DNA from: Pelotomaculum sp. DTU098
GTDB lineage: Bacteria; Bacillota; Desulfotomaculia; Desulfotomaculales; Pelotomaculaceae
Assembly: GCA_001512635.1 (NCBI GenBank)
Contig: LFSA01000061.1
Span: forward strand, 747-64,746
Length of the DNA: 64,000 bases
Direction: 5' to 3'
In this document: piece after piece, positions 25,258 to 59,787 of the stretch
Numbering within the stretch: position 1 is the stretch's first letter
Layout: every line of letters begins with the position of its first letter
Made by a program: the position numbers and the translations under genes
The notes under the pieces: generated by a model
What the model was told of the DNA's origin: nothing
The model's database searches: none
What the model saw: only the letters and a program-made list of their open reading frames with translations

Positions 25258-25447
25258 AAATAAAAAGCCCTACGATGTACGTGATAAACCTTGAAGTTTT
25301 TGCCAACACAATTACAATGGAGCCTGAGCTCTGAATGTGGCTTGCATGCCTCCACGATGTTGAGGAAGCAAAAAGCATTCAGGAGGGCATCCACCTTGGA
25401 GGAAGCAGGTTCAAACTTTTGGGAATTCACGGCATCAGTGGGGTTTG
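25258..25447 (+). ncRNA. ssrS: 6S RNA candidate (6S-1/bsrA-like)
   Basis: The non-coding aspS-tcdA gap is where I recall B. subtilis bsrA lying. The 5' arm AAGCCCTACGATGTACGTGA pairs with the 3' arm TCACGGCATCAGTGGGGTTT. Interior pairing includes CTGAATG/CATTCAG and the apical hairpin CCTC/GAGG, leaving a central unpaired region. The ends are approximate. Confidence 0.6.
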
Positions 25448-25468
25448 AGATGAGAGTTCTAAGCTGAC

Positions 25469-42820: not shown

Positions 42821-42876
42821 AACTTTAGTTTTAAGGCCATCCTAAAAATATATGTCTTAATTCCGGGTTGATCCTA

Positions 42877-44580
42877 ATGGACTATTTAAGACAAAAAAGG
42901 TTGGTCTATCTTTTTTTTATTTTTTTTGCCTGCTTTCTGGGACTGGTATACCAGCTTTTTCTCATTCAGTACAGGGACGGGGATCTTTACGCCTGCCTGG
43001 CCCTGGAACAGAACAGCCGCTGGGTTTCCCTGGAGAATACACCCCGGGGCCGGATCCTGGACCGCAACAGGGTGCCCCTTACCGGTGAACGGACTGAGAT
43101 GAGGGTCGTATTGTTTCCGGCAGCTGTCGGGAATAGTGACGAGGTCAGCCGGGAACTGGCCGGGATCCTGGGGGTGGAAGAGGACAGGCTGAACAGCTTT
43201 TTTGACGGGGAACCCTGCCTGCTGCCCTATAAGCTCACTTCTGAAAAGGCCGCAGCCATTCAGAACAGAGGCTGGACCGGCGTAATGGCGCTCCCGGTGC
43301 AGTTACGCTACGGCGAACAGCAACTGGCAGCCCAGGTCATCGGACACCTGGGTAAAATCTCTTCCCCTGAGGAGTTCGCGGATTTATCCGGAAGGAATAA
43401 TAAAGTTTACCATTATGATGATCTGGTGGGCAAAACAGGGCTGGAAATGTACTATGAAGATGTCCTCAAAGGGTCCCTGCCCCGAAGGGCAGTGCGGGTG
43501 TACACTGATGCGGCAGGCAGGCTGCTGGGGGGGCCGGGGTTTATTGTCGAAGAGCATACAGAGGATCACGCCAGGTGTGATCTGGTCCTTACCATCGACG
43601 CCCGGATCCAGAAGATTGTCGAAGAAATAATGGACCAGCACGTACCCAGGGGGGCTGTGGTGGTCATGGAGGCCGGCTCGGGGGATATCCTGGCCATGGC
43701 CAGCCGGCCCAGTTACCATCCAGCTCGTCCGGAAGACTACCTGGACGCCGCAGGTGGGGAAAACTGTTTTCTCGACCACTGTACAGCCCTCTACCAGCCC
43801 GGCTCGGTATTTAAAGTTGTCATTGCCGCCGCCGCCCTGGAAGAGGGTGTAGCAGACCTTGCCAGCCAGTTTACCTGCCGTGGCGCAGGGGAAACGCTGC
43901 TGCGCTGCTGGAAGCCGGAAGGACACGGCACAATAAATTTTGCCCAGGCTTTTGCGGAATCCTGCAACCCCGTTTTCGCCAGGCTGGGTTTGCAACTGGG
44001 GGCACAGAAGGTAATTGACTACGCCGGGCTGTTTGGCCTGGACAACCAGTCCGTGGTGGGTTACCCGGTGCCAGGGGATCGCCGGCAGGATTTGAGACAG
44101 ATTGAGGCGCCCTATAACCTTGTAAACAGCTGCATCGGCCAGGGACCCGTGCTGGTTACACCGGTACAAGTTGCTTCGATGATCAACACGGTTGTTTCAG
44201 GCGGGTTCTACCGGCAGCCCCGCCTGGTGCAGGAAATATGTAAGAGCAGCGGGGATACCGTGCATATGCTGCCTTACGACCCGGGTCAAAGGGTTATTTC
44301 TTCAGAAACCGCCGCAAAGCTGTGCAAGCTGCTGGAAATGGCCGTGGAGGAGGGTACAGGGCAAGAGGCCCTGGTGCCTGTTTTCGGCAGTGCAGGAAAG
44401 ACCGGGACCGCCCAGGTCGGCGACAGCAGCCTATCTGTAAACGCCTGGTTTGCCGGGTACGCCCCCCGGGTCAATCCCCGCTATGTGGCGGTAGTCTTAA
44501 GCGAAGGGGAAGCCGGCGGCAGTACGGCAGCAGCGCCTGTTTTCAGGGAAGTCATGGAGGCTATCCTGGAGCTGGACTAA
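42877..44580 (+). CDS. Penicillin-binding protein 2-type transpeptidase (PbpI/SpoVD-like, no PASTA domain)
   Basis: N-terminal TM and PBP dimerisation domain. The transpeptidase motifs are SxxK (GSVFK), SxN (SCN) and KTG (GKTGTA). Start ATG 42877, or TTG 42868. Confidence 0.9.
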   Translation: MDYLRQKRLVYLFFIFFACFLGLVYQLFLIQYRDGDLYACLALEQNSRWVSLENTPRGRILDRNRVPLTGERTEMRVVLFPAAVGNSDEVSRELAGILGVEEDRLNSFFDGEPCLLPYKLTSEKAAAIQNRGWTGVMALPVQLRYGEQQLAAQVIGHLGKISSPEEFADLSGRNNKVYHYDDLVGKTGLEMYYEDVLKGSLPRRAVRVYTDAAGRLLGGPGFIVEEHTEDHARCDLVLTIDARIQKIVEEIMDQHVPRGAVVVMEAGSGDILAMASRPSYHPARPEDYLDAAGGENCFLDHCTALYQPGSVFKVVIAAAALEEGVADLASQFTCRGAGETLLRCWKPEGHGTINFAQAFAESCNPVFARLGLQLGAQKVIDYAGLFGLDNQSVVGYPVPGDRRQDLRQIEAPYNLVNSCIGQGPVLVTPVQVASMINTVVSGGFYRQPRLVQEICKSSGDTVHMLPYDPGQRVISSETAAKLCKLLEMAVEEGTGQEALVPVFGSAGKTGTAQVGDSSLSVNAWFAGYAPRVNPRYVAVVLSEGEAGGSTAAAPVFREVMEAILELD

Positions 44581-44776: not shown

Positions 44777-46069
44777 TTAATCCATGAGAACCCTCGGAAT
44801 GTAGAGGGAGAGATCCGGAACGTAGACCAGTAACAATAAAACAAGAATCATAATCAGGATAAAGGGGAGAACCCCCTTGATTACTTCCTCCAGCCTGGAC
44901 TTGGCCATGGCGGTCACCACAAAGAGGTTCAGGCCCACGGGCGGCGTAATCATGGCCAGTTCCATGTTTACCGTCATAACAACGGCGAAGTGGATCAGGT
45001 CGATGCCGAGGACCTGGATCATGGGCAGCAGGATCGGCATGGTGATCAGGGTAATGGCGACAGCTTCCAGGAATGTGCCCATGATGAAGAACATCAGGTT
45101 GGTGGCCAGGAAAAACGCGTACTTGTTCAGGTTGCTTTCCCCGATCCAGCGGGCGGCCTCCATGGGCACCTGGTTCACCGTAAGGTACATGGAGAAAACC
45201 ATGGCTGCAGCAATGATCAGGAAGATCATGGAGGAGATGTCGATGGAATGGCGAAACACATCTCTCATGTCCCGCAACTTCAATTCCTTGTAAACAAACA
45301 TCGAAACTATAATAGTATAGAAAACGGAGAGCACGGCGGCCTCGGTGGGGGTGACGATACCCATGTAAATGCTGCCCAGGATGAAGACGGGCAGGAAGGC
45401 CCCCGGCAGGGCTTTCACGGTTTTGCGCAAACGCTCATCCCAGGATTCCTTGGGCAGGCGGCCGTAATTTTTCCTTTTGGCAATGATTACGGCGCTGGTA
45501 ATTAAAATAGAAGCCAGTAAAATGCCGGGGATAACACCGCCCATGAACAGCTTGCCGATATTTTCCTCGGTTACGACACCGTAGATAACCATGGTCACAC
45601 TGGGCGGGATGAGAATTCCCAGCGTACCGGCTGCGGCCACAAGTCCCATGGCGTAGCGCTTGGGGTAGCCCCCCTCGATCATGGCAGGCAGCATGATAGC
45701 GCCGATGGCGGCGGCTGTGGCCGGGCTGGAGCCGGAAATGGCCGCAAAAATCGCACAGGCCATAATGGTCACAACGGCCAGGCCGCCGGGCAGGTGCCCG
45801 AACCAGGCCCGCAGGGCTTCAATCAGGTACTTGGCAATGCCGCCCCGGGACATGGCCACACCTGCAAAGACAAAGGCAGGAATGGCTAGAAGGGGAGGCG
45901 ACAGCAGGGAGGCGAACATTCTCTGGACAATCATCAAGAGGCTGAAGTCACTGGTCGTGGCCAGAATAATAATGGCAGCTATAGCCAGAGAGATGGCGAT
46001 GGGGACGTTTAAAAGAAACAGAGCGATGAAAATACTAAAAAGCAGTACTGTCTCCACCGGTATGTCCAC
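44777..46069 (-). CDS. dctM: TRAP transporter large permease subunit (DctM family)
   Basis: 430 aa with about 12 TM helices and a DctM-type pattern (GG.AKYL, AISGSS.AT.AA.G). Confidence 0.9.
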   Translation of the reverse strand: MDIPVETVLLFSIFIALFLLNVPIAISLAIAAIIILATTSDFSLLMIVQRMFASLLSPPLLAIPAFVFAGVAMSRGGIAKYLIEALRAWFGHLPGGLAVVTIMACAIFAAISGSSPATAAAIGAIMLPAMIEGGYPKRYAMGLVAAAGTLGILIPPSVTMVIYGVVTEENIGKLFMGGVIPGILLASILITSAVIIAKRKNYGRLPKESWDERLRKTVKALPGAFLPVFILGSIYMGIVTPTEAAVLSVFYTIIVSMFVYKELKLRDMRDVFRHSIDISSMIFLIIAAAMVFSMYLTVNQVPMEAARWIGESNLNKYAFFLATNLMFFIMGTFLEAVAITLITMPILLPMIQVLGIDLIHFAVVMTVNMELAMITPPVGLNLFVVTAMAKSRLEEVIKGVLPFILIMILVLLLLVYVPDLSLYIPRVLMD

Positions 46070-46571
46070 CTCCTTTTTCCATTTCTTCCATCCAATCGCG
46101 ACCGCCGTTCTTCAGAATTTGATAGAGTTTCTCAATAAACCTGATGGCGAACATCAAGCCGCTGACAGGTAAGAACACGTTCACGATCCAGAGGGGAAAC
46201 TGGCTGTCAGCGGAGCGCTGACCCGAGTTCAGATAGAATTCAACCAATTGATAGCCGAAGTAAGTATAAAAAAAGCAGAAGGCAAGCCCCAGGGTGTTGG
46301 AGAAGATACTGACCGCCCACTTGACCCGCAGGGGCAGTATATTGTAAAGCATATCCACCCTGATGTGGTGATTGTCCCGCAGGGCCACGGCAAATCCCAG
46401 GAGAAGCCCCCAGATGATAAAATAAAGGGAAAATTCATCAAGCAAAGACTGGGGGCGGCCAAAGAAATAGCGCAAGACAACGTTCACCATAATCATAGTA
46501 AGTCCGATGAAGAGCAAGCTACCCGCCAGGTAATCTTCAAATGCCGCGTAGGCCCGCTTCAGACGTTCCAT
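46035..46571 (-). CDS. dctQ: TRAP transporter small permease subunit (DctQ family)
   Basis: 178 aa with 4 TM helices. It lies directly between dctP and dctM and overlaps the dctM start. Confidence 0.8.
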   Translation of the reverse strand: MERLKRAYAAFEDYLAGSLLFIGLTMIMVNVVLRYFFGRPQSLLDEFSLYFIIWGLLLGFAVALRDNHHIRVDMLYNILPLRVKWAVSIFSNTLGLAFCFFYTYFGYQLVEFYLNSGQRSADSQFPLWIVNVFLPVSGLMFAIRFIEKLYQILKNGGRDWMEEMEKGGGHTGGDSTAF

Positions 46572-46682
46572 ATGTTTTCCACCTTCCTAATCCATTGACA
46601 AATGTGGGCCCAATAAAGAAAAAGGGGACGTTCCGGCACACCCGGGAAAGACGCCCCCTGAAGTGTGTGCTTGTATGCTATT

Positions 46683-47705
46683 TTATTTATTGCAGCTTTT
46701 AGCTGCTTCGATATATTCTCTTCCAATTTTGTCGGTGTACTCGTCATAAACAGGCTGCATGGCTGCTACAAATTTCGCCCTGTCCTCTTCCGTCAGGGTA
46801 TAAATCTCCATTTTGCCGCTGGCCTTTAATTTTTCAAAGCTCTTCTGGTTTTCTTCTTCCGCCAGCTGGCGCTCATAGAGAGTGGCTTCCCTCATGGCTT
46901 CCTCGATAATTTGCTTGTTTTCCGGACTCAGGGAATTCCAGAAGGTAGTATTGGTGAGAACTACGTAATCCAGGCGCCCGTGGTTGGAAACCGTCATGTA
47001 TTTCTGAACGTCCTGGTAGTTCTGGGTATCGATATTATTAAAGGTATTTTCCTGCCCGTCTACGGTTTTGTTATTGAGGGCGGTGAAAACTTCCGCAAAG
47101 GCCAGGGTCTGGGAACCTGCTCCCAGGGCCCTGAACTGGGCGTCTAGAAGGCCGCCGCTCTGGGTCCGGAACTTTAAGCCGCGAAAATCTTCCGGGCTTC
47201 TCAGGGGCCGCTTGGAATTAGTGAATTGTTTGGCGCCGTTGGGCCACCATGCCAGGCCGAGCATGCCCTGGGGCTCAAGGGAACGCATCAGCTTTTGGCC
47301 AGCGGGACCATCGTAAAAATCATAGGCAGCCTGGTCGTCATTAAACAAGAAGGGCATGTCCACAATCTGGAAAGCCGGTTCAAAACCCACCAGTTTGGTA
47401 ACAGAAGGAGCGATAAACTGAACATTGTTGGCCATTAACTGTTCCAGTTCCTCTTTATCACCGTATAGCTGGGATGCCGGGAAAACAAGAACTTCAATTT
47501 TACCGTTGGACTTCTCTTCAACCAGTTCCTTAAACTTTAAGACAGCTTTCCCCTTTGGGGTGGATTCGGCCACAACATGCGTAAACCTAACTTTCAACAC
47601 ACCATCCCCGCCTGCGGACGATTCTTTTCCGCAGCCTGTCAGGGACATGATCATTAATCCGGCTAAAACAGCGCATAAAAACATTACCCAGTTTTTCTTT
47701 TTCAT
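46683..47705 (-). CDS. dctP: TRAP transporter substrate-binding lipoprotein (DctP family)
   Basis: 340 aa with a lipobox (LTGC) after the signal peptide and DctP motifs (KFKELVEEKSNGKI.V.VFP..QLYGD.E). Confidence 0.88.
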   Translation of the reverse strand: MKKKNWVMFLCAVLAGLMIMSLTGCGKESSAGGDGVLKVRFTHVVAESTPKGKAVLKFKELVEEKSNGKIEVLVFPASQLYGDKEELEQLMANNVQFIAPSVTKLVGFEPAFQIVDMPFLFNDDQAAYDFYDGPAGQKLMRSLEPQGMLGLAWWPNGAKQFTNSKRPLRSPEDFRGLKFRTQSGGLLDAQFRALGAGSQTLAFAEVFTALNNKTVDGQENTFNNIDTQNYQDVQKYMTVSNHGRLDYVVLTNTTFWNSLSPENKQIIEEAMREATLYERQLAEEENQKSFEKLKASGKMEIYTLTEEDRAKFVAAMQPVYDEYTDKIGREYIEAAKSCNK

Positions 47706-48194
47706 TTCCTGCCTCCTAGATAACTTACTGATTGGGGAAATAGGGGAAATAAAGAACGGTGTAGTATTTATCTAAATAAAAACAGGGTTTTTCAACTCAC
47801 CTCCCGGTCAATTCTTAATTTTCAGTAGAAACGATAAATATTTAATCATTACGGACTTTGCCTTTAAATTATAAATTACAAACACCATTTAAAATACCGT
47901 GGAAGGCAATTATTGATCATATATATCTTCAACATTACAAGACTAAATTAATAAGTATCTAAACTGTCTTAATTTTCATAATAATCAACATAAGCTATTA
48001 GGTGATTATTTTCTGTAAAGATTGTCTAATCTTGCTAAATAATACTATTATTCTATATTAGATTAGCAGTTACTTAGATATACACACTAATTATAATAAT
48101 ATTACTAACATAAAAAAACATTTTGTTCATAAAAATACAAAGCTTTTATAATTTTGTGTCAATTCTTTTAAAATTTTAAAGATTTAATAAAATA

Positions 48195-48219
48195 GCAACC
48201 CTATGTAAGGGTTGCTTTT
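48195..48219. terminator. Hairpin terminator inside the A+T-rich island (usable in either direction)
   Basis: GCAACCCT (48195-48202) pairs with AGGGTTGC (48208-48215). It is flanked by AAAATA on the 5' side and TTTT on the 3' side. Confidence 0.6.
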
Positions 48220-48274
48220 AAGAGTTACCATTTATTTATCAATTTTTCATTTATTTTGTGCTTTTTGTGCTTTA

Positions 48275-48463
48275 TTATAGTCTTGAAGTTTTGGCAGGAG
48301 GCAGTAAGAATGTGGGCGAGCAGTATGCCGTATAATAATGTACTGGGCGGGAATTGTTACTGGCGCTCTCATTCTTGGGTTTAAAATAAACATGGTAACA
48401 GGCAATAACGTACACACACAGGTAGGCAAGCATTGTACCTAAAAAGATTTCAAACCACACCAT
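48275..48463 (-). CDS. Hypothetical small membrane protein
   Basis: 62-aa ORF. A G7 SD-like run ends 7 nt before the ATG. One strongly hydrophobic N-terminal helix (VWFEIFLGTMLAYLCVYVIACY) precedes a polar tail. I recognised no family. Confidence 0.35.
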   Translation of the reverse strand: MVWFEIFLGTMLAYLCVYVIACYHVYFKPKNESASNNSRPVHYYTAYCSPTFLLPPAKTSRL

Positions 48464-48696
48464 TCATTTTCCCCCCCAAAATTAATTTGTATCCCCTAAT
48501 TACATTGTATACAATATGCAAAAAAATGCAAGCCCTTCAACAGATATTCGCAATTATTATTTAATTCAAAAAAAGATGCGAGATAGAATTAATCAATTAT
48601 GGTAGAAAACGGGCAGGTTAAAAAACTTCCCTGTTAATTTAATATATGCATTAAGCAGGCCGGGCGAACTAGCCACAGGCTTTAAGTTAATTAAAG

Positions 48697-48719
48697 GGGT
48701 CCACAATTCCAGTGGACCC
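48697..48719 (-). terminator. Hairpin directly downstream of the glutaredoxin-like gene
   Basis: GGGTCCAC (48697-48704) pairs with GTGGACCC (48712-48719). On the minus strand it is followed by CUUUAAUUAA. Confidence 0.55.
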
Positions 48720-48721
48720 TT

Positions 48722-48955
48722 TCAGTTAAGTAGTCTTTCCAGCTGGTTCCGGTCAAATCCTACGACGACCTGTTCTCCCACCTTAATTGTGGGAACAGCC
48801 ATCCGGCCGGTTTTCCTGATCATTTCACTGCGCGCGGCTTCATTTTCAGCAACATTGAGTTCCCTGTATTTTACCCCTTTCTGTGAAAGAAACTCCTTCA
48901 CGTGGGTACAATGGGGTCAGGATGGTGTGGTATATACTGTTACGTTTTCTGGCAT
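48722..48955 (-). CDS. Glutaredoxin-like protein (YruB/NrdH type) with in-frame TGA at the first active-site Cys: candidate selenoprotein, alternatively a pseudogene
   Basis: Absent from the ORF track. On the minus strand a GGAGGA SD lies 6 nt before ATG 48955. The translation is MPENVTVYTTPS-U-PHCTHVKEFLSQKGVKYRELNVAENEAARSEMIRKTGRMAVPTIKVGEQVVVGFDRNQLERLLN, with TGA at 48917-48919. The frame stays open for 64 further codons and keeps Grx-fold motifs (VP cis-Pro, VVGFD). Confidence 0.6.
48883..48901 (-). promoter_or_regulatory. SECIS-like stem-loop downstream of the in-frame UGA
   Basis: On the minus strand, GUGAAGG-AGUUU-CUUUCAC forms 7 bp including one G-U, with a G in the apical loop. 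It starts 15 nt after the UGA. An outer CCCC/GGGG pairing is possible. Confidence 0.45.
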
Positions 48956-49037
48956 AACTCATCCTCCGGATTTTTTTATTATTGTTGGCTTTCCGTTCAA
49001 AAAATATACTGGAACAACATGAACAAGGGTTTATTGA

Positions 49038-50411
49038 CTATTTATCAGGTCTGCCGATGCCTTTATAAATAAAACCCTCTTTCCTTATCGCCCGGGGAGC
49101 AAAGATATTTCTACCGTCAACAATTACAGCTTGCTTCATAACGCCTTTAAGCTGCTTAAGATCGAGATTCCTGAATTCTTCCCATTCCGTGACAATAACT
49201 AGAGCGTCAGCATTGCTTGCTGCTTTTATGGCACTGTACTCATAAGTAACAGTCAGCTCGGGATGCTGCCTTTTGCATTCATCCATCGCTACCGGGTCAT
49301 ATACCTTAACCACGGCTCCTTTTTCAAGCAGGCCGGAGATAATGTCCAGACTCGGGGCATCCCTTAAATCATTTGTATTGGGTTTAAAAGAAAGGCCCAG
49401 GATCCCGATGGTCCGCCCTCCCAGATCCCCAAGCAAATCCTCCAGGTCTAGAACTATTTTTTGCCGCTGCCGGGTGTTCACCTGAACCGCTGCGTCAATT
49501 ATTTGCGGGAAATAACCATATTTTCCTGCTGTGTGGAGTATAGATGCAAGATCCTTACCGAAACAACTCCCGCCCCAACCGATGCCTGCCTTTAAAAACT
49601 CCGGGCCAATCCTGTGGTCCAGGCCGACTCCCCTGGAAACAACGGTTACATCCGCGCCTACCCGCTCGCAGATATTGGCAATTTCGTTGATTAAGCTGAT
49701 TTTTGTAGCCAGGAAAACATTGGCTGCATACTTGATCATTTCTGCGTTTACGGGTGTTGTGACGATTAATTCGACCCTTTTCAAGTGACCAGGCCTGGGA
49801 GGGATACCGGGCAGGTTTCCAAAGCTTTGTTCAATGATGGGCCTGTAAAGGTCCCTGATAACTTTAACAGAACGCTGACAGCAGGCCCCGATGACAATCC
49901 TGTCAGGGTAGACAGTGTCCCAAAGGGCGTTTCCTTCCCGCAAAAACTCAGGGTTGCTGACTACACCAAAGTGGCTGTGCCCGCCCCTTTGGCTGCCGAG
50001 GATGGAGGCTAGCTTACTCCAGGTTCCGACGGGTACTGTGGACTTGGTGACAACAACCGTGAATCTTTCTGGATCAAGGGATTCTCCGATTTGCCGGGTC
50101 GCTGAAAAAAAACTGCTGAGGTCCGGTTCCCCGGTTTTCAGGGCAGGGGTGCCAACAGCAATAATAATCACATCAGAAATTCGAAAAGCCGGATTGGGAG
50201 AGCTGGTAAAGAGGAGTTGACCGCTGTCAACATTAGCCTCAACGAGCTCTTTCATTCCTTTTTCATAAACCGGCACAATCTTTTTTTTAAGGCTTTCAAT
50301 TTTTGCCGGGTCCCGGTCATAACAAAAAACCTTGTGTCCAAAGGATGCCAGGCAGGCGCCTGTAACGAGTCCCACATAACCCATTCCGACAACTGAGATA
50401 ATCATACCCAC
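49038..50411 (-). CDS. ugd: UDP-glucose 6-dehydrogenase family protein
   Basis: 457 aa with the N-terminal Rossmann GMGYVGLVTGA, the catalytic-Cys motif GWGGSCFGKD and a C-terminal UDP-binding domain. Confidence 0.88.
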   Translation of the reverse strand: MGMIISVVGMGYVGLVTGACLASFGHKVFCYDRDPAKIESLKKKIVPVYEKGMKELVEANVDSGQLLFTSSPNPAFRISDVIIIAVGTPALKTGEPDLSSFFSATRQIGESLDPERFTVVVTKSTVPVGTWSKLASILGSQRGGHSHFGVVSNPEFLREGNALWDTVYPDRIVIGACCQRSVKVIRDLYRPIIEQSFGNLPGIPPRPGHLKRVELIVTTPVNAEMIKYAANVFLATKISLINEIANICERVGADVTVVSRGVGLDHRIGPEFLKAGIGWGGSCFGKDLASILHTAGKYGYFPQIIDAAVQVNTRQRQKIVLDLEDLLGDLGGRTIGILGLSFKPNTNDLRDAPSLDIISGLLEKGAVVKVYDPVAMDECKRQHPELTVTYEYSAIKAASNADALVIVTEWEEFRNLDLKQLKGVMKQAVIVDGRNIFAPRAIRKEGFIYKGIGRPDK

Positions 50412-50842: not shown

Positions 50843-52690
50843 ATGACCCGGCAGATTAGAATGCTGTTGCTGATGGCCCTGGACGTGCTGCTGGTCAATG
50901 CGGCAACAGTGTCCGCCGTCCTGCTCGTCTCCAAAGCCAGCCTCCTGAGCGATCAGGCCAGGATTGGGGCTTTTGCCCTGGTTACAGCGGCAACGTCTTT
51001 GTCTTCATTTTATTTTTTCGGCCTCTATAACAGGATCTGGGAATATGCCGGAGCAAAGGAGCTTTATGCCATTATCAAGGCTGTAACTCTGACAGGTTTT
51101 CTCCAGTTCTGTCTCAACCTGATTCTTTTTAAAGCTTATTTGCCCGGCAGCGTGTTCTTAATCAGCTGGCTTTTGATGTTGTTTTTTGTAGGTGGTTCAA
51201 GATTCTGCTGGCGGCTTATGCGCGATCTGGACAATTTCAGGCTTCTCCGGCAGCGCAAAAAACCTGTTTTGATTGTGGGCGCCGGAGGGGCGGGAGCTCT
51301 GGTAGCCAGAGCCATTCAGGAAAATGAAACAGATCTTGCCCCGGTTGGTTTTGTTGATGACAGCGACCTCAAACAAAATATGAAAATGTACGGCCTGCCT
51401 GTTTTGGGAAAACGGGAGGATATACCAGCCCTTGTGGAAAGGCACGCTATCGAAGAAATTATTATTGCCATCCCTTCGGCATCCAGCAGGGAGCTCCGGG
51501 AGCTGGTAAATATCAGCAGCAATACGCCGGCCAGGCTCAAGATTACCCCCAGCGTGTTCAGTTACATCAGGGGAAACATAAATCTGAAGCAGATCCGGGA
51601 TGTAGAGGTAGAAGACCTGCTGAGGCGTGAGCCGGTCAGGGTCAATTTGCAGGATATAGCCGGCTATTTAAACGGGAGGGTGGTTCTGGTAACCGGCGCC
51701 GGAGGCTCGGTGGGGTCAGAACTCTGTATCCAGGCAGCTTCTTTCAGGCCACGCCTGTTGGTACTTCTGGGCCGCGGCGAGAACAGCCTGTATGAGGCCA
51801 GCCTTGCTCTGGAAAGCCGTTACCCCGGCGTCAACCGGGAAATTGCCATAGCGGATGTCAGGGACCGGTACCGGATTGAGCAAATCTTTTCCCAGTACCG
51901 CCCGGACGTGGTATTCCATGCGGCTGCCCATAAACACGTGCCGCTCATGGAAAAAAACCCCTATGAAGCTTTCGTCAATAATGTTATCGGTACACTGAAT
52001 GTAGCCCGGGCGGCTAAAGCAGTTCAAACCGGCGTTTTTATCCTGATTTCCACTGACAAGGCTGTTAAGCCGAAGAGCGTCATGGGCGCCACAAAGAGAG
52101 CGGCGGAAATGATAATCCAGGAATTTAACCGGAATTCTGACACAAGGTACTCAGCAGTACGATTCGGCAACGTGCTCGGCAGCAGAGGCAGTGTTGTGCC
52201 CCTTTTTAAAAAACAGATAGCCCGCGGAGGACCTGTCACGGTAACAGACCCGGATATGGTAAGGTACTTCATGACCGTATCCGAAGCAGCCCAACTGGTC
52301 ATTCAGGCCGGTGCCCTGGCCAAAGGAGGGGAGATCTTCCTCCTGGATATGGGTGAACCTGTAAGGATCGTCGACCTGGCCAGGGATCTGATTAAGCTGT
52401 CGGGTTTTCGTCCTGACCTCGACATTCCTATTGTATATACCGGAGTCAGGCCCGGGGAGAAACTCTTCGAGGAACTGTTTACGGAAAACGAGCGGGTAGA
52501 CAAAACCGCCCACGAGAGGATCCTGGTAAGCCGGTCAGAGGAGACCTCTTCCCCGGCAGTAAAAGAGCTCATTGAATACGTGGATTCACCCGGTTTCAGT
52601 TTGAACGACTTTGAAGCACTGGAACTGCTTCGAAATCTTATACCTGAATTCGGCCATGCCGATAGCCTGACCTTGGTGGAGGGAAAATAA
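50843..52690 (+). CDS. Membrane-anchored polysaccharide biosynthesis protein, CapD/PglF/WbpM-like (UDP-HexNAc 4,6-dehydratase family)
   Basis: 615 aa with four N-terminal TM helices and two Rossmann motifs (VGAGGAG; VTGAGGSVGSEL). It also has an SDR catalytic region (STDKAV.P..VMGATKR). Confidence 0.88.
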   Translation: MTRQIRMLLLMALDVLLVNAATVSAVLLVSKASLLSDQARIGAFALVTAATSLSSFYFFGLYNRIWEYAGAKELYAIIKAVTLTGFLQFCLNLILFKAYLPGSVFLISWLLMLFFVGGSRFCWRLMRDLDNFRLLRQRKKPVLIVGAGGAGALVARAIQENETDLAPVGFVDDSDLKQNMKMYGLPVLGKREDIPALVERHAIEEIIIAIPSASSRELRELVNISSNTPARLKITPSVFSYIRGNINLKQIRDVEVEDLLRREPVRVNLQDIAGYLNGRVVLVTGAGGSVGSELCIQAASFRPRLLVLLGRGENSLYEASLALESRYPGVNREIAIADVRDRYRIEQIFSQYRPDVVFHAAAHKHVPLMEKNPYEAFVNNVIGTLNVARAAKAVQTGVFILISTDKAVKPKSVMGATKRAAEMIIQEFNRNSDTRYSAVRFGNVLGSRGSVVPLFKKQIARGGPVTVTDPDMVRYFMTVSEAAQLVIQAGALAKGGEIFLLDMGEPVRIVDLARDLIKLSGFRPDLDIPIVYTGVRPGEKLFEELFTENERVDKTAHERILVSRSEETSSPAVKELIEYVDSPGFSLNDFEALELLRNLIPEFGHADSLTLVEGK

Positions 52691-52694
52691 GAGT

Positions 52695-54020
52695 ATGCAA
52701 GCTGGCAGTCCTATGGAAGAATTGAAGAGAAAAATCGAAACCCGCCAGGCAAATGTTGTTGTAGTGGGTCTGGGTTATGTGGGCCTGCCCCTGGCTGTAG
52801 AGAAAGGAAACGTGGGTTTTCATGTTACAGGCATAGAAAAATGTGAGGAACGCGTCAAACTTGTCAATGAAGGTAAAAGCTACATCCCCGATGTTGAGGA
52901 GGAAGAATTACGGAAACTGGTTGAACAGGGCAGGCTTATAGCAACTTCCAGTTATGATTGCCTGGATAATGCCGACATCATGATCATTTGCGTACCCACT
53001 CCGCTTACCCCCAACCGCGACCCCGATATTTCCCAGATCGTCGCCGCTACCAAGCAAATTGCCGGCCACCTCCACAAAGGCCAGTTATTAACCCTGGAAA
53101 GTACCACTTATCCCGGGACCACCCAGGAGGTTATCCTGCCTCTCCTGGAATCAAAGGGGCTTAAGGTTGGAGAGGATTTTTTCCTGGCTTATTCACCGGA
53201 AAGGGTCGACCCGGGGAACAAGCGGTTCAAGACCAGGAATATTTCCAAAATCGTAGGCGGCGTAACGCCCTCCTGCCTTGAGGTAGCCTGTCATTTTTAC
53301 TCCCAGACCATATGCGAGGTAGTCCCGGTTTCCTCACCGGCAGCTGCGGAAATGATCAAAGTTTTCGAGAATACTTACCGGGCTGTGAATATTGCTCTGG
53401 TTAACGAATTAATGTTCATCTGCGACCGCATGGGGCTGGACGTTTGGGAAATCGTAGAGGCTGCAAGCACCAAGCCCTTTGGCTTTCAAACCTTTTATCC
53501 CGGTCCCGGGGTGGGAGGCCACTGCATCCCGGTGGATCCCTATTATTTAACCTGGAAGGCCAGGGAATATGATTTTTATTCCAATTTGATTGATATCGCC
53601 GTTCAGGTAAATATCAAGGCTTCCTACTTTTTCGCCGAAAAAGTGCGACAGGCTTTAAACCAGAATAAAAAAAGCATCCGTGACGCCCGGGTACTTGTTT
53701 TGGGGGCTGCTTATAAAAAGGACATTAATGACAGCCGTGAATCACCTGCCGTCAAAATCATGTCGCTCCTGGCCAATGAAGGAGTGGAAGTATCCTACCA
53801 TGATCCCTATATCCCCACAGTTACCCTGTCTCCAACCCGGGTTTTAAAAAGTGTCCAGCTGACGGAAGAGGAAATTGCCCGGTATGATTGTGTGGTGATT
53901 GCAACTGACCACAGTTGCTTTGATTACGAGATGATCCTCAATCATGCCCAGGTGCTGGTGGACGCGCGCAACGCCACCGGGAGGTTCCTGGGTAAGAAAG
54001 CAAAGGTTATTAAAATTTAG
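52695..54020 (+). CDS. Nucleotide-sugar dehydrogenase (UDP-N-acetyl-hexosamine 6-dehydrogenase type, WbpA/WecC/TviB-like)
   Basis: 441 aa with the Rossmann VVGLGYVGLPLA, the catalytic-Cys motif GVGGHCIPVDP and a C-terminal domain (LGAAYKKDINDSRESPA). Confidence 0.85.
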   Translation: MQAGSPMEELKRKIETRQANVVVVGLGYVGLPLAVEKGNVGFHVTGIEKCEERVKLVNEGKSYIPDVEEEELRKLVEQGRLIATSSYDCLDNADIMIICVPTPLTPNRDPDISQIVAATKQIAGHLHKGQLLTLESTTYPGTTQEVILPLLESKGLKVGEDFFLAYSPERVDPGNKRFKTRNISKIVGGVTPSCLEVACHFYSQTICEVVPVSSPAAAEMIKVFENTYRAVNIALVNELMFICDRMGLDVWEIVEAASTKPFGFQTFYPGPGVGGHCIPVDPYYLTWKAREYDFYSNLIDIAVQVNIKASYFFAEKVRQALNQNKKSIRDARVLVLGAAYKKDINDSRESPAVKIMSLLANEGVEVSYHDPYIPTVTLSPTRVLKSVQLTEEEIARYDCVVIATDHSCFDYEMILNHAQVLVDARNATGRFLGKKAKVIKI

Positions 54021-54035
54021 GCAGGGGGTACCAGG

Positions 54036-55130
54036 GTGTCTATACCGTTAATAGATCTGAAGACACAATATAAATCAATTAAAGATGAGGTCCTGGCAGC
54101 AATAAACTCTGTGCTGGAAAGCGGGGAATATATTCTAGGCCGGAACGTAGCGGCCCTGGAATCTGCCGTGGCTGAATTATGCGGAGTCAGGCACGGAATT
54201 GGGGTGGCCAGCGGGACGGACGCGCTTTTGCTGTCCTTAAATGCCCTGGGCATTGGGCCCGGTGATGAGGTCATTACAACTCCCTACACCTTTTTTTCTA
54301 CAGCCGAGGTTATCTCAAAGGTTGGGGCTACCCCGGTATTTGCAGATATTGATCCGTTGACCTATAACCTGGATCCAAACCAGGTTGCCAGGAGGATTAC
54401 ACCCCGCACCAGGGCCATTATCCCGGTGCACCTTTTCGGCCAGATGGCGGATATGGAACCCCTTCAGGACCTCGCCCGGGAACACCGGCTGGTAATAATC
54501 GAGGATGCCTGCCAGGCCATCGGAGCCCGTTACAAAGGCCACAGGGCCGGCTCCCTGGGACATACCGCATGCTTCAGCTTCTATCCCACCAAAAACCTGG
54601 GCGGTTACGGCGACGGGGGAATGGTGGTTACAGACGACAGTGAAATCGCAGACAGGCTCAGGGTGCTAAGGGTGCATGGGAGCCGTACCCGGTATTATCA
54701 TTCTATCCACGGTTACAACAGCAGGCTGGACGAAATCCAGGCCGCCGTCCTGAGGGTTAAACTAAAACACCTGGACCGGTGGAACGAGCAGCGGCGGGCC
54801 AGGGCGGCACTTTACGACCGCCTCCTGAGCGGCAGCGGCATTATCACACCCCATGTAGAACCATGGAATGAAAGTGTTTACCACCTTTACGTGGTGCGCT
54901 CCCCGCAAAGGGATCAATTGAAAGCGCGCCTTTCCGAGGCGGGCATCGGCAGCGGTGTTTACTATCCTCTGCCCCTTCACCTGCAGGAGGTCTACAAAGG
55001 GCTTGGCTACCGGCCCGGCGATCTGCCGGAGGCGGAAAGGGCATCCCGGGAGACCCTGGCCCTACCCCTGGATCCGGATCTTTCCGAAGAGACTATCCGG
55101 CTGGTCGTGAAAAAGCTCCTGGGCAATTGA
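54036..55130 (+). CDS. DegT/DnrJ/EryC1/StrS family sugar aminotransferase
   Basis: 364 aa with the motifs GDEVITTPYTF..TA and DAC(E)QA.GA. The PLP-lysine motif is SFYPTKNLG. Confidence 0.9.
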   Translation: MSIPLIDLKTQYKSIKDEVLAAINSVLESGEYILGRNVAALESAVAELCGVRHGIGVASGTDALLLSLNALGIGPGDEVITTPYTFFSTAEVISKVGATPVFADIDPLTYNLDPNQVARRITPRTRAIIPVHLFGQMADMEPLQDLAREHRLVIIEDACQAIGARYKGHRAGSLGHTACFSFYPTKNLGGYGDGGMVVTDDSEIADRLRVLRVHGSRTRYYHSIHGYNSRLDEIQAAVLRVKLKHLDRWNEQRRARAALYDRLLSGSGIITPHVEPWNESVYHLYVVRSPQRDQLKARLSEAGIGSGVYYPLPLHLQEVYKGLGYRPGDLPEAERASRETLALPLDPDLSEETIRLVVKKLLGN

Positions 55131-56627
55131 GTGCCTATGAAGAACAGTCTCAGTTACCAGGCCTTTTTATTAACAGCTGCCAAGGCGGCAGACGCCTTTA
55201 CCCTCCTGGTCCTGGGGATGATCCTGGCCCGCCTGCTCACCCTGGAGGATTACGGGACCTACAGGCAGGTATGGCTTTTATACAACACCCTGATCCCTTT
55301 GTTCACCCTGGGGATAGCCACCAGCGTCAACTATTTTGTACCGAGATTTGAGCCCGGACAACAAAAAACCTTTATTTTCCAGACCTATACCGGGCTCTTC
55401 ATCCTTGGTTTTTTGTTCGCGGTGTTTTTGTACGCGGGGGCTGATTTTTTCGGCTCCAGGTTCAATAACCCGGACCTGGCTCAGGTAATCAAAATATTTT
55501 CCCTGGTCCCGCTTTTAACCATGCCGACCTCTTACTACCACAACCTGTACATTTGCCTGAAAAAAGCCGTCGTCGCGGCAGGCATCCTGACTTCGGCAAC
55601 CCTGGTCAGGTTCAGCGTAGTTACTATTTCCGTATTTATCCACCCTTCCTTAAAAAATATTTTTACGGCCCTGTTAATCTATTACGTCCTGGAATTCATC
55701 TTCCTTTCGCTGTTGATTTACCGCCCCTTTAGGACCGTGCCGCTGGATTTGAAAAAGCAGAATATCCTGGAACAGCTCAAGTTCACCGTACCCATCGGCC
55801 TGTCCTCAGTGGTAGGAGCCTTCAGCCGCCAAATTGATAAGTTGATCATCTCCGGGTATTTCACTTCCCGGGAATATGCAATTTACGCCAACGGAGCGAT
55901 GGAACTGCCCCTGGCCAGGATTCTGAACGCGGCCGTAATGTCGGTCCTGATGCCGGAGCTGGTTGTGCTGTACAACCGGGGAGAGTATCAGGAAATGCTG
56001 GCGCTCTGGCACCGCTCCATCCGCAAAGTCTCCCTGATTATTTTACCGGTGATGGTTTTCCTGTTTATTTTCGCCAGGGAGTTCCTGGTCCTTTTGTATT
56101 CCGAAAAATACCTGGAAAGCGCGGGTATTTTTCAAATCTACCTGCTGACCCTGCCGATCCGGGTTACCACCTTCGGCTCCCTGTTGCTGGCGGCGGGACT
56201 TTCCAGGGTAATTATGTACTACTCTGTATATACCGTAATCATCTCCGTAGTCTTAAACATAACCATGATCCGGCTGTGGGGAGTCTGGGGAGCAGCCCTG
56301 GCCACAGTCACCGCAATTTATTTCATGACCTTTCTCCAGCTTAGCAAAATTTGCTCTGTCATAAACTGTTCCTTTAAAGATGTGTATCCCTGGAAAGTCA
56401 CAATGCACATCCTGGGGGTATCCCTGGCTGCCGGGCTCGTACCCCTGGTGGGCAGGGTAATAATTGAGAACTGGTTCATTTCCCTGGTGGTAAACGGTTT
56501 CCTCTACCTTTTGATTTTCGCGGGGCTTGCTGCCGGGACAAAGCTGCTTTCAGCCGGTGAGATTGAACAGATTAAAAAGAAGGTGAGGTCGAGTCTGGGT
56601 TGTGTGCGAAAGCCAGGACAAAAATAG
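55131..56627 (+). CDS. Polysaccharide flippase (Wzx, MOP superfamily)
   Basis: 498 aa with about 12-14 TM helices and a polysaccharide-biosynthesis-protein pattern. An alternative start is ATG 55137. Confidence 0.8.
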   Translation: MPMKNSLSYQAFLLTAAKAADAFTLLVLGMILARLLTLEDYGTYRQVWLLYNTLIPLFTLGIATSVNYFVPRFEPGQQKTFIFQTYTGLFILGFLFAVFLYAGADFFGSRFNNPDLAQVIKIFSLVPLLTMPTSYYHNLYICLKKAVVAAGILTSATLVRFSVVTISVFIHPSLKNIFTALLIYYVLEFIFLSLLIYRPFRTVPLDLKKQNILEQLKFTVPIGLSSVVGAFSRQIDKLIISGYFTSREYAIYANGAMELPLARILNAAVMSVLMPELVVLYNRGEYQEMLALWHRSIRKVSLIILPVMVFLFIFAREFLVLLYSEKYLESAGIFQIYLLTLPIRVTTFGSLLLAAGLSRVIMYYSVYTVIISVVLNITMIRLWGVWGAALATVTAIYFMTFLQLSKICSVINCSFKDVYPWKVTMHILGVSLAAGLVPLVGRVIIENWFISLVVNGFLYLLIFAGLAAGTKLLSAGEIEQIKKKVRSSLGCVRKPGQK

Positions 56628-56650
56628 ATGAAATGAGCCGGGAGAAAATT

Positions 56651-57994
56651 ATGATCTTCATGAAATGGCTCTGGCTGGCAACTCTGGTGACGGCCTTCTT
56701 CGGCCCGCTGCTGGCCCTGGATGCCTACCCGGGAATATTTGCTTATAAAATACTCTTTTGCCTGCACCTGGCGCTGTTTTGCTTTTTCCTCGCTTTCCGG
56801 AAAATAACCCTTGAAATAAACCATAAAATAAGGCCCTTTTTCGTATTTTTCCTGGTCTGGCTGGCCTGGGCCGTGTTCTCCCTGCTCTGGGCCGATAACA
56901 TCCCCGATGGACTCAGGAACCTCTGGTACCTCTTTTCCGGGCTGAGCCTGGTAGGGTTTACTGTCTTTTACATGCGCAAGGAAGAAGACCTGAAAGCACC
57001 CCTTTTCATCCTGGTGGCAATTCTTTTAATCATTATGGGTGTAGGAATCTGGGAATACAAAACAGGCCTGCACCTGAAAACAGCAGGGCTTGTCCCGGCT
57101 GCAGGCACCATCTCCAAAGCACCCCGGGGCGTCTTTAAGAATCCAAATGATATGGCCACCTACCTGGCTCTATACCTGCCCTTCCTGTTCATTGCAGCAA
57201 AGTATCTCATGGTCAGGCTGAAGACCCTGTTGCCTGCGCTTGGCTTACTGGCCTGTGCCGGTACGGGTATATTCCTGCTCATTAATTCGGGGTCCAGGGG
57301 TAATTTAGTCGCTCTGGCCTTGAGCCTGGTTGCTGCCCTAATCATTTACTTGCTCCAGGGGAAGTGGAAGGCCTTCAGGAACGTCCTGGCAATGGTAACC
57401 GCTCTGGTTGTCCTTTATTTTGTGCTGGCAAATACACAGCCCGCCCTCCACTACCAGCTTAAGCGGCAATACAGGATTGCCCGGCACCACCTTGTATCCC
57501 TTGAACATGTCGGCCGGGAGGACTCGGCCAGGATGATCCTGTCCCGTAACGCCTTTCAAGAACTGCATAAACATTCTTTGCTGGGGGTAGGCGCCGGTAA
57601 CGCTGAAGAACATATGAAGGCATACCGGACGGAGACGTTCCAGATTCTGGCCCTGCACAACTGGTGGCTGGAAATCCTGGTCAACTACGGCATCTTTATC
57701 TTTGTCCTTTATATAGTCTTTATCTTCAGGCTCCTGTTTCAATTGTACCTTGTAGCTGTACGGGCGGGACCGGGCGTGCTGAAGGTGGTGGCCGAAAGCG
57801 CCCTGGTGGGGCTGGCGGGCTTTCCAATTGCAGCGGTCAGTTCCAGCAGTCTGGTTTACAGCAGGGTAATGTGGATTTTTTTCGGCTTCGCCCTTTGCGC
57901 CGTAAACCTGTACTGGAGCAGCAACGCCATTCAGTCAACTGAAGAGGGAGAGAAACTTGAGAGTTCTGTGCCTGTCCAATCTTTACCCGAATAA
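56651..57994 (+). CDS. O-antigen polymerase/ligase family membrane protein (Wzy-like)
   Basis: About 10-12 TM helices with a Wzy_C-like segment (NSGSRGNLVALALSL) and a large loop (HYQLKRQYRIARHH...). Start ATG 56651 follows a GGGAGA SD; the ORF-track start 56600 overlaps wzx. Confidence 0.7.
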   Translation: MIFMKWLWLATLVTAFFGPLLALDAYPGIFAYKILFCLHLALFCFFLAFRKITLEINHKIRPFFVFFLVWLAWAVFSLLWADNIPDGLRNLWYLFSGLSLVGFTVFYMRKEEDLKAPLFILVAILLIIMGVGIWEYKTGLHLKTAGLVPAAGTISKAPRGVFKNPNDMATYLALYLPFLFIAAKYLMVRLKTLLPALGLLACAGTGIFLLINSGSRGNLVALALSLVAALIIYLLQGKWKAFRNVLAMVTALVVLYFVLANTQPALHYQLKRQYRIARHHLVSLEHVGREDSARMILSRNAFQELHKHSLLGVGAGNAEEHMKAYRTETFQILALHNWWLEILVNYGIFIFVLYIVFIFRLLFQLYLVAVRAGPGVLKVVAESALVGLAGFPIAAVSSSSLVYSRVMWIFFGFALCAVNLYWSSNAIQSTEEGEKLESSVPVQSLPE

Positions 57995-59165
57995 GCACAA
58001 TCCCCTGCGGGGCGTTTTTGTAAAAGACCAGGTTTTCAGCCTGGCCCGGTTGGGATGCCAGGTCAAAGTGGTTTCCCCCGTGCCTGCCGCCCCTGCCCCC
58101 ATCAGTTTTTTTGTCAAAAAATGGAAGGGCTATAAGGAAGTTCCGGGAGTGGTGGATGACGGGACAATCCAGGTCCTTCACCCCCGTTACCTGCTCTTGC
58201 CCAGAAACCTGCTTTTTGCCTACAGCGGCTGGTTTTATTACCAGGCCACAAAGAATCTGGTCAAGGAAATCAGCCGTGACTGGCCCTTTGAGCTGATCCA
58301 TGCCCATACGGCCCTGCCGGACGGGTATGCGGGATTGCTCTTAAGCCGTATTCTAAAAAAACCCCTGGTTGTTACCATTCACGGGCGGGACCTGCAGGAT
58401 ACGGTGTTCAGGAACAGCAGGTGCCGTAAGGTCGTTCTGGAGGTGCTGCAAGGAGCTGATGCAGTTGTGAACGTAAGTCATAAACTGGCAGCTTCTTGCA
58501 GGTCCTACCTGGGGGAGGACATTAAAATCAAAGTGATCGGAAACGGGATCAACCTCGGGGAAATCTTCGGGGCTTACAGCCCGCTCAGGGAAAAATATGC
58601 CGGGAGCAAAATCATCCTCTCCGTGGGAAGCTTAAAAAAGACAAAGGGGCACGACATTACCCTGCGGGCTTTTAAAACCATAAGGGAGCAGTTCAACCAG
58701 GTTATCCTTCTGATTATCGGCGGGGGGGAAGAGAGGGAAAACCTGCAGGGCCTGGCCAGGGAACTGGGAATTGACCAGGTAGTTGAGTTTATCCCGCCCC
58801 AGCCCCACAGTAAGGTTATGGAGTACATGTCCCTTTGTGATTTGTTCGTGCTGCCCAGCTGGAATGAAGGCTTCGGGATTGTCTACCTGGAAGCTATGGC
58901 CCACGGCAAACCCGTCATAGGTGTCAAGGGGCAGGGTATTTCTGATGTCATCCAAAACGGGATCAACGGTTTGCTGGTCGAACCCCATGATGAGCATGAT
59001 CTGGCCCGGGCCATCCTCGGCCTGCTGAACAACGGGAATTACGCCCTGAGCCTGGGCAAAAGGGCCAGGGACACGGTGCTGCAGGATTATACCTGGGACT
59101 GCATCGCCCGGAAGCTTCTGGATCTTTATCGCTCCCTTAGAGCCGGGGGGAACGCGGGTGTTTAA
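57957..59165 (+). CDS. Glycosyltransferase family 4 (GT-B, retaining)
   Basis: 402 aa starting (M)RVLCLSNLYP. The C-terminal Glycos_transf_1 domain carries the E-x7-E motif (EGFGIVYLEAMAHGKPVI). Confidence 0.85.
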   Translation: MRVLCLSNLYPNKHNPLRGVFVKDQVFSLARLGCQVKVVSPVPAAPAPISFFVKKWKGYKEVPGVVDDGTIQVLHPRYLLLPRNLLFAYSGWFYYQATKNLVKEISRDWPFELIHAHTALPDGYAGLLLSRILKKPLVVTIHGRDLQDTVFRNSRCRKVVLEVLQGADAVVNVSHKLAASCRSYLGEDIKIKVIGNGINLGEIFGAYSPLREKYAGSKIILSVGSLKKTKGHDITLRAFKTIREQFNQVILLIIGGGEERENLQGLARELGIDQVVEFIPPQPHSKVMEYMSLCDLFVLPSWNEGFGIVYLEAMAHGKPVIGVKGQGISDVIQNGINGLLVEPHDEHDLARAILGLLNNGNYALSLGKRARDTVLQDYTWDCIARKLLDLYRSLRAGGNAGV

Positions 59166-59787
59166 GCGGATTTTAGTGCTGGCCCCCCATACGGACGACG
59201 GCGAGCTGGGTTGCGGCGGCGCAGTGGCAAGATTCCTGGATGAGGGCAGGGAGGTTTACCAGGCCGTATTTTCATCAGCCGCCAGGTCGCTGCCGGCAGG
59301 TCTCCCCCCCGATACCCTGGTCCGGGAATGGAAAGCCGCCACTTCCACCCTGGGCATCCCCGCGGGAAGCTTGATCAGGTACGAGTTCCCGGTCCGGGAA
59401 TTTCCGGCCTGGCGCCAGGAGATCCTGGAAAAACTTATCATCCTGCGGCGGGAGCTGGAACCTGATCTGGTTTTGCTGCCGGCCCTGGAAGATCTCCACC
59501 AGGACCACCGGACAATTGCCCGGGAAGGGATCAGGGCCTTTAAACAGGTATCTGTCCTGGGCTACGAGCTGCCCTGGAATAATCTCGAGTTCAAGAACAA
59601 TTGCTTTATCGTCCTGCAGGAGTCTCACCTGCAAAAAAAAGCTGCGGCCCTGGCCTGTTACCGTTCCCAGCGGCACAGAATATACTGCCGAAAAGAGTTT
59701 GTGCTGAACCTGGCCGGGGTAAGGGGAGCCCAAATAGGAGCTGACTTTGCAGAATTGTTTAGTCTGATACGCCTGGTAATTAAGTGA
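59158..59787 (+). CDS. PIG-L/LmbE family de-N-acetylase
   Basis: 209 aa with the motifs AHTDDGELGCGG and HQDH typical of the PIG-L zinc deacetylases. The GTG start overlaps the preceding stop by 8 nt. Confidence 0.8.
   Translation: MFKRILVLAPHTDDGELGCGGAVARFLDEGREVYQAVFSSAARSLPAGLPPDTLVREWKAATSTLGIPAGSLIRYEFPVREFPAWRQEILEKLIILRRELEPDLVLLPALEDLHQDHRTIAREGIRAFKQVSVLGYELPWNNLEFKNNCFIVLQESHLQKKAAALACYRSQRHRIYCRKEFVLNLAGVRGAQIGADFAELFSLIRLVIK

Follow-up and report, generated by a model that had tools for sequence, protein, structure and literature searches.

In the fdhF gene of E. coli, the SECIS is an intragenic hairpin that follows the UGA closely and carries G-U in a small apical loop. Glutaredoxin-1 (Grx1) of Clostridium (Alkaliphilus) oremlandii OhILAs was reportedly the subject of a study by Kim and colleagues in 2011 (Mol Microbiol 79:1194). 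According to the structure paper for PDB 7c10, C. oremlandii glutaredoxin-1 is natively a selenoprotein, has a U(or C)PXC motif and was crystallised with Cys in place of the catalytic Sec; a companion paper, in which the mutant 'Grx1 U13C/C16S' was used, reports that C. oremlandii Grx1 reduces the selenoprotein MsrA of the same organism, while thioredoxin cannot. Grx (PF00462, UxxC) is listed among the experimentally verified prokaryotic selenoprotein families in a 2026 review (PMC13188914). Sec-Grx was reported from Moorella, Geobacter and Alkaliphilus in a 2006 survey and is placed by reviews in 'a limited number of species'; Desulfotomaculum and Desulfofundulus, which are lineages related to the one studied here, are documented Sec users. 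According to the bSECIS model (PMC13188914), a bacterial SECIS has a loop of 3-9 nt, a stem of 4-16 bp, a spacing of 16-37 nt and an MFE of at most -7.5 kcal/mol, with a G in the first two loop positions and the loop pattern N1-G-[G/U]-N-N2.

Here, we analysed a 64-kb stretch of DNA (the window) from a Pelotomaculum-like member of Desulfotomaculia, in which an original prediction had placed a candidate selenoprotein gene of the glutaredoxin type. We propose that the product of 48722-48955(-) is very probably a YruB / C. oremlandii Grx1-type glutaredoxin of 77 residues, with selenocysteine inserted at the UGA that forms codon 13. The candidate is supported by a TGA in 77 of 80 orthologous loci, by intact flanks, by a SECIS-like hairpin and by Grx1 homology. 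It is most likely a genuine Sec-glutaredoxin, and its family has already been validated experimentally as a selenoprotein family. The original prediction had traced knowledge of Sec glutaredoxins to computational surveys; the family is indeed listed there, but not in surveys alone, as Grx1 has been studied experimentally. What is new here is only the truncation of the gene in public annotation, and there is no new mechanism.

Structure of the glutaredoxin gene

The features of the gene on the minus strand are collected in Table 1. Translation of the frame gave 12 codons (MPENVTVYTTPS) before the internal TGA and 64 codons (PHCTHVKEFLSQKGVKYRELNVAENEAARSEMIRKTGRMAVPTIKVGEQVVVGFDRNQLERLLN) after it, followed by the terminal TGA; the predicted product, MPENVTVYTTPS-U-PHCTHVKEFLSQKGVKYRELNVAENEAARSEMIRKTGRMAVPTIKVGEQVVVGFDRNQLERLLN, begins with MPENV and ends with ERLLN. 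Reading of the sequence confirmed all coordinates of the original prediction as well as its GGAGGA six nucleotides before the start codon, and the 64 codons beyond the TGA were free of lesions as claimed, the coding sequence being intact and conserved on both sides. A hairpin at SECIS distance follows the internal TGA only, and none was present for the terminal TGA. The terminator expected 3′ of the final stop was recovered by the terminator scan, and its fold gave -22.2 kcal/mol with z = -4.35.

The whole gene was missing from the ORF track, as had been pointed out. The list held only a 59-aa fragment with a GTG start, 48722-48901(-), and a 77-aa ORF on the opposite strand, 48789-49022(+), which had been described as antisense and which showed no family match in a Pfam search. 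A sigma-70 promoter scan 5′ of the glutaredoxin gene identified none on the minus strand. On the same strand, a UDP-glucose 6-dehydrogenase gene precedes it by 82 nt. The two genes may be co-transcribed; the glutaredoxin gene is equipped with a terminator of its own.

Table 1. Features of the putative Sec-glutaredoxin gene, in window coordinates
Feature	Position	Strand	Basis and remarks
Shine-Dalgarno GGAGGA	48967-48962	-	read from sequence; 6-nt spacer to ATG
Start ATG	48955-48953	-	read from sequence
Complete putative Sec-glutaredoxin CDS	48722..48955	-	translation; 77 residues + terminal TGA
In-frame TGA, read as putative Sec13, the attacking residue of the U-P-H-C redox motif	48919-48917	-	ortholog comparison
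TGT, putative resolving Cys16 of UPHC	48910-48908	-	Cys codon in 80/80 orthologs; corresponds to C16 of C. oremlandii Grx1
Putative bacterial SECIS hairpin, GUGAAGGA-GUU-UCUUUCAC	48883..48901	-	fold, pairing, codon constraint, bSECIS model
Terminal stop TGA, codon 78	48724-48722	-	read from sequence, translation
Intrinsic terminator, 8-bp GC-rich stem GGGUCCAC/GUGGACCC + T-rich tail	48687..48719 (hairpin 48719-48697)	-	terminator scan + fold

The product is a glutaredoxin of the YruB family

For profile scoring, the U of the product was replaced by C. A strong match was obtained with Pfam Glutaredoxin PF00462 (E = 7e-20, 71.4 bits against a cut-off of 22.9), and the score with the NCBIfam model of the YruB family, TIGR02196, was 100 bits over model positions 2-74 of 74, against a curated cut-off of 88.55, which bears out the YruB-type identity assigned from the sequence. 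The NrdH redoxin model TIGR02194 scored 50 bits, below its cut-off of 85.75, and no ribonucleotide reductase genes were found nearby. The model of the Uxx-star glutaredoxin-like selenoproteins, NF041212, scored just below its cut-off (65.1 versus 66 bits); by its name, that group carries Sec three residues from the C-terminal stop, whereas in the window protein the putative Sec is residue 13, with 64 residues after it.

The best PDB match was 7c10 (E = 5e-21, 54% identity over 72 residues). The UPHC, AVPT and VVGFD motifs are all present and align with 7c10 (C/U-P-x-C after strand beta-1, the cis-Pro VP and the C-terminal VVGF), and the homolog alignment shows no variation at V54, P55 and G66 and hardly any at F67. 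The internal TGA aligns with the first Cys of CPHC in 7c10, and the alignment with 7c10 and the homologs puts it exactly at the N-terminal redox Cys of CxxC, where it had been predicted to fall. Cys-containing homologs do exist: in the wider family, Cys occupies the Sec position in 132 of 149 representatives at 50% identity, among which the 'VKEFLS' region is variable.

The in-frame TGA is conserved among orthologs

Orthologs were collected in a scan of one genome per species with two peptide patterns, one of which, KEFLS[QH]K[GK][VI], corresponds to the hairpin-encoded peptide, and 80 loci from several phyla were obtained. The codon at the first active-site position was TGA in 77 of the 80 loci and TGT or TGC in the other three, a ratio that applies to the sampled clade and not to the whole family and that, like part of the hairpin conservation, is conditioned on the motif because the hairpin-encoded peptide was one of the collecting patterns. 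A Cys query was used for confirmation and ranking by tblastn, which favours Cys forms and disfavours TGA forms. The loci include Pelotomaculum, Desulfofundulus, Desulfocucumis, Desulfoscipio, Desulfotruncus, Natronincola and many Chloroflexota/Dehalococcoidia, together with MAGs labelled Nitrospinae, Methylomirabilota, Acidobacteriota and Deltaproteobacteria.

The frames on both sides of the site were intact in all 80 loci, with 8-16 in-frame codons before it (49 in one locus) and 63-72 after it, or 159-172 in fusions to a PDZ domain. In the seven codons directly 5′ of the TGA, the residues V-Y-T-T-P-T were kept and the synonymous sites were free (entropy of 1.6-1.85 bits at 4-fold sites), indicating that the 12 N-terminal codons share their translated frame with the 3′ part of the gene. 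Conservation of the TGA with intact flanks in 77 of 80 loci is more than chance, and its presence in cultured species of Pelotomaculum and Desulfofundulus, again between intact flanks, appears, from these sequences, hard to explain otherwise than by Sec. The original prediction had asked whether relatives also carry the TGA with a conserved hairpin, and most of those collected here, Pelotomaculum and Desulfofundulus among them, do so. Of the contrary signs that it had named, decay of the gene and Cys forms devoid of the hairpin were not seen among the 80 loci.

Besides the three Cys forms among the 80 loci (L015, L077 and L080), a fourth was identified at L085:201-431. All four carry TGT or TGC at the Sec position and have retained the SECIS-like hairpin and its codon choices, indicating that in some lineages the hairpin is conserved even where the TGA is not; judged from their sequences, they are probably recent Sec-to-Cys reversions. 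About 16 loci, mostly from Chloroflexota (e.g. L075:10040-10525), encode the TGA-glutaredoxin fused to a C-terminal PDZ domain, which would be a Sec-Grx-PDZ architecture.

A contig from an anaerobic digester (ENA ERZ941577, contig k127_54517; L084:1769-2002) carries the window's locus, with 100% identity in the 3′ half and the flanks and about 20 substitutions, all of them transversions, in the first ~150 nt of the gene. These substitutions change TGA to TGC, disrupt the hairpin and remove the invariant KTG motif. We rejected this sequence as a close Cys variant and regard it as a probable assembly or sequencing artefact, despite which its protein (P0003) serves as a 50%-cluster representative in the protein library.

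A conserved hairpin follows the TGA

The original prediction had described a stem-loop beginning 15 nt downstream of the TGA, with a G in its loop and with the form and position of a bacterial SECIS. This hairpin, GUGAAGG-AGUUU-CUUUCAC, folds as stated, lies within codons Val19 to Ser24 and is conserved across the orthologs. Its conserved core is a 7-bp stem with the loop A-G-U-U-Y, to which RNAfold added an A-U closing pair, giving 8 bp and a GUU loop. The hairpin alone reached -8.3 kcal/mol; the MFE fold of the 60 nt after the UGA contained it, at -17.8 kcal/mol and a modest z of -2.0 for the window sequence alone. The loop (AGUUU or GUU), the stem (7-8 bp), the spacing (22-23 nt) and the energy of the hairpin all lay within the four constraints of the bSECIS model, and the loop A-G-U-U-U fits N1-G-[G/U]-N-N2 with a pairable N1/N2 (A, U).

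We then examined pairing in 79 distinct sequences. Over the 8 pairs, 92.9% of the cells were paired, compared with 40-74% when the 3′ arm was slid by 1-3 columns. Covariation was found at pair 20-36 only, which is U-A in 40 sequences, C-G in 15 and U-G in 6, including 15 double changes from U-A to C-G; a further 15 cases with U-C mostly have a G one base upstream, which allows a bulged-U register. The remaining stem pairs are nearly invariant, and this invariance is itself informative at synonymous sites. The Val codon of the hairpin is GTG in 63 of 64 cases, the Glu codon is GAG in 79 of 79 while the other Glu codons of the gene are used about 50:50, the Leu codon is CTT or CTC in 80 of 80 out of six possible, and the Ser codon is always TCN. 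The third-position G of the frozen GAG is the apical-loop G. Just outside the hairpin, the Glu, Lys, Gln, Gly and Val codons show near-even usage, and the synonymous constraint is confined to the hairpin.

A longer lower stem, which RNAfold formed from CCCC/GGGG in the window, was rejected as unconserved (63.9% paired). No SECIS family of Rfam passed the gathering threshold over the whole window, where only a T-box and a 6S RNA elsewhere did so, and a search at E up to 10 over 47600-49100 gave no SECIS family and only weak matches at chance level.

Public annotation and alternative readings of the TGA

In the protein search, full-length relatives carried either Cys at the site (P0004 and P0008) or W, in the manner of a code-4 translation of TGA (P0001, P0002, P0005 and P0006), and about 25 further entries were shortened calls of 57-64 residues, most of them 58-59, starting with V/MKEFLSQKG. 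An NCBI MAG (GCA_035408785.1, contig DAONNU010000020.1) is 100% identical to the window at the gene, which is called there as a 59-aa fragment, in line with the expectation that gene callers mishandle Sec glutaredoxins. Among species representatives, a Bacillota MAG and Pelotomaculum sp. UBA1371 come closest, with 89.6-91.8% DNA identity over about 20 kb.

Given the four entries with W, the UGA could be thought to be read as a standard amino acid, either as Trp or Gly by a reassigned code or as Cys or Trp by near-cognate suppression, a reading with which the lack of visible Sec machinery in the window would also agree. We consider it very improbable. TGA serves as a normal stop codon in 7 of 50 window genes and also terminates the glutaredoxin gene itself, indicating that the genetic code is not reassigned, and the code-4 translation P0001 runs past its terminal TGA into 55 residues of non-coding sequence that read as nonsense. 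Moreover, Trp or Gly at the catalytic CxxC position would inactivate the enzyme, a conserved element of the SECIS-model type lies at the right distance, and the closest characterised homolog is a proven selenoprotein. Translation of the UGA as Trp is a second type of mis-annotation, besides truncation.

The shortened calls imply instead that the true product is the 59-residue protein that NCBI starts at GTG 48901 and names 'glutaredoxin domain-containing protein', with the 12 codons and the TGA as a non-coding leader; about 25 homologs are likewise called at 58-59 aa. We give this reading almost no credence, as such a protein would miss strand beta-1 and the entire redox motif. GTG 48901 has no Shine-Dalgarno sequence, whereas GGAGGA precedes ATG 48955, and the supposed leader shows the coding pattern of conserved amino acids and free synonymous sites. 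The fixation of this GTG is explained by its place in the hairpin stem, and in about 16 orthologs the codon is replaced by GCG (Ala, which is not a start), 15 of them with a compensating change. That the gene is a pseudogene, inactivated by a nonsense mutation of the active-site TGC or TGT to TGA, would take a single-base change and would fit a full gene that public pipelines leave uncalled, but it is scarcely tenable when the same TGA stands in 77 of 80 species from several phyla with intact frames and purifying selection on both sides, since a dead gene would gain further lesions and not keep the identical stop in all lineages.

Selenocysteine at codon 13 is the reading that we favour, and the annotation would be corrected from a 59-residue 'glutaredoxin domain-containing protein' to a 77-residue putative selenoprotein with a U-P-H-C active site. 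The gene illustrates the well-known truncation of selenoproteins by annotation pipelines.

Genomic neighbourhood and search for Sec machinery

We searched for selA, selB, selD and tRNA-Sec and found none within the 64-kb window or the flanks of 60 related loci. ARAGORN likewise returned no tRNA-Sec in the window or these 60 loci, a result that is uninformative because the Sec machinery is usually located elsewhere in the genome. A Pfam search of about 30 window genes, with about 20 larger ORFs outside the scan, showed no selA, selB, selD or msrA. The window showed no sign of a further selenoprotein gene: among 323 raw candidates for TGA-interrupted ORFs with redox-like motifs, all except 48722-48955 lay inside or antisense to ordinary genes, and the only unexplained coding gap seen was an AT-rich spacer at 47705-48700.

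The recurring neighbours of the gene in the 80 loci were a PBP/U32 housekeeping cluster (41 loci), an XRE-type regulator (20) and a thioredoxin (10). No dedicated functional partner emerged from the conserved-neighbour analysis of the 80 loci, and no conserved msrA neighbour was found among them. In the window, Pfam identified the housekeeping genes ruvB, queA, tgt, secD, recJ, relA, mnmA, alaS and mltG, a PBP and a polysaccharide cluster.

Several other features of the window were observed. A block at 44777-48700, comprising a TRAP transporter operon on the minus strand (dctP/Q/M) and the ~1-kb AT-rich spacer (GC 0.20 at 47900-48199), sits between grx and the PBP gene (42868-44580). The four closest relatives (L001, L002, L005 and L023) share this block. 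In the other aligned Pelotomaculum and Desulfofundulus genomes it is missing and grx directly abuts the PBP gene; the block looks like an insertion. Within the spacer, a 62-aa ORF at 48275-48463(-) has a hydrophobic N-terminus and a G-rich Shine-Dalgarno-like run, and gave no Pfam match. A T-box leader at 21691-21921(+), 5′ of a 422-aa ORF (21989-23257), and a 6S RNA gene at 25264-25448(+), after a 607-aa ORF, both passed the Rfam gathering score and are typical of a Bacillota housekeeping region of this kind. At 50843-59787(+), divergent from the UDP-glucose dehydrogenase/grx pair, lies a polysaccharide biosynthesis cluster with a Polysacc_synt_2 (PglF/CapD-like) dehydratase, a second nucleotide-sugar dehydrogenase and a DegT-type aminotransferase.

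Proposed decoding and function

We propose that ribosomes would start at ATG 48955 and would meet the UGA with the hairpin 15 nt past it, in codons 19-24. The hairpin, with its loop G-U exposed, may recruit SelB.GTP.Sec-tRNA(Sec), by which Sec would be inserted at the UGA instead of termination, and translation would end at the TGA of codon 78, which has no hairpin element. The product is predicted to be a thiol/selenol-disulfide oxidoreductase of the thioredoxin fold, in which Sec13 would attack oxidised substrates and Cys16 would resolve the mixed selenenyl-sulfide. Sec insertion, SelB binding, the reductant and the substrates are all inferred. If the protein acts as C. oremlandii Grx1 does, it may reduce methionine sulfoxide reductase A at its oxidised catalytic residue; the oxidoreductase role, possibly serving MsrA, is drawn from cGrx1 homology and not from local evidence.

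Discussion

A putative clade within the YruB/Grx1 family, defined by T-P-T-U-P-H-C...VKEFLSQKG...KTGRMAVP, is distributed over Bacillota, Chloroflexota (including the Sec-Grx-PDZ fusions), Nitrospinae, Methylomirabilota, Acidobacteriota and Deltaproteobacteria. We tentatively suggest, with somewhat less than even confidence, that Sec is the rule in this clade, that its near-identical SECIS nucleotides mark a SECIS-locked module moving horizontally among Sec-using anaerobes, and that the family is commoner than reviews state. If so, it would be under-counted because public annotation systematically truncates its members to 58-59 residues. The data are compatible with near-obligate Sec and with spread across phyla, short of establishing either.

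The finding marks a Pelotomaculum-like syntrophic anaerobe as a putative Sec user with a Se-dependent thiol redox system. The ortholog set, with its 77 TGA forms, 4 Cys forms including L085, one covarying pair and frozen synonymous sites, is a clean natural dataset that could help in training or testing predictors of bacterial SECIS elements and in mending annotation pipelines.

Compared with known elements, the window hairpin resembles the SECIS of E. coli fdhF and Moorella fdhA in being intragenic, in lying just 3′ of the UGA and in its small G-U loop. It differs from them in sequence, and a conserved lower stem is absent in the window family (63.9% paired). Its loop G is presumably ~4 nt farther from the UGA than that of fdhF. 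The bulged-U register occurs only in those window-gene orthologs with a UCC Ser codon. At the family level, the protein shares with YruB (TIGR02196) a full-model score over the cut-off. The wider YruB family is mostly Cys, whereas the window protein has a putative Sec for the first Cys; the gene also has no rubredoxin-operon context, its neighbours being UDP-glucose dehydrogenase and the TRAP transporter. With the prokaryotic 'Glutaredoxin (Grx)' selenoprotein family (Kryukov/Zhang/Gladyshev surveys; PMC13188914) it shares PF00462, UxxC, Sec/Cys pairs and a SECIS directly downstream with a G in a small apical loop; unlike in that family, TGA is the rule in the sampled clade (77/80), in a sample collected partly via the hairpin-encoded motif.

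The closest described protein is cGrx1 of C. oremlandii OhILAs (PDB 7c10, 7c12 and 7c13). It belongs to Clostridiaceae, whereas the window gene comes from Desulfotomaculia; it has KKGIMAVP where the window protein has KTGRMAVP; and its selenoprotein MsrA partner and glutathione dependence are without counterpart evidence for the window gene. In other respects the two are alike: both belong to the length class of roughly 75-85-residue Grx and carry U13-P-H-C16 at identical residue numbers, and the VKEFLS peptide lies over the hairpin in both. The Natronincola ortholog of cGrx1 (L067) carries the TGA and the same hairpin, GUGAAGGAGUUUCUUUCAC, as the window gene.
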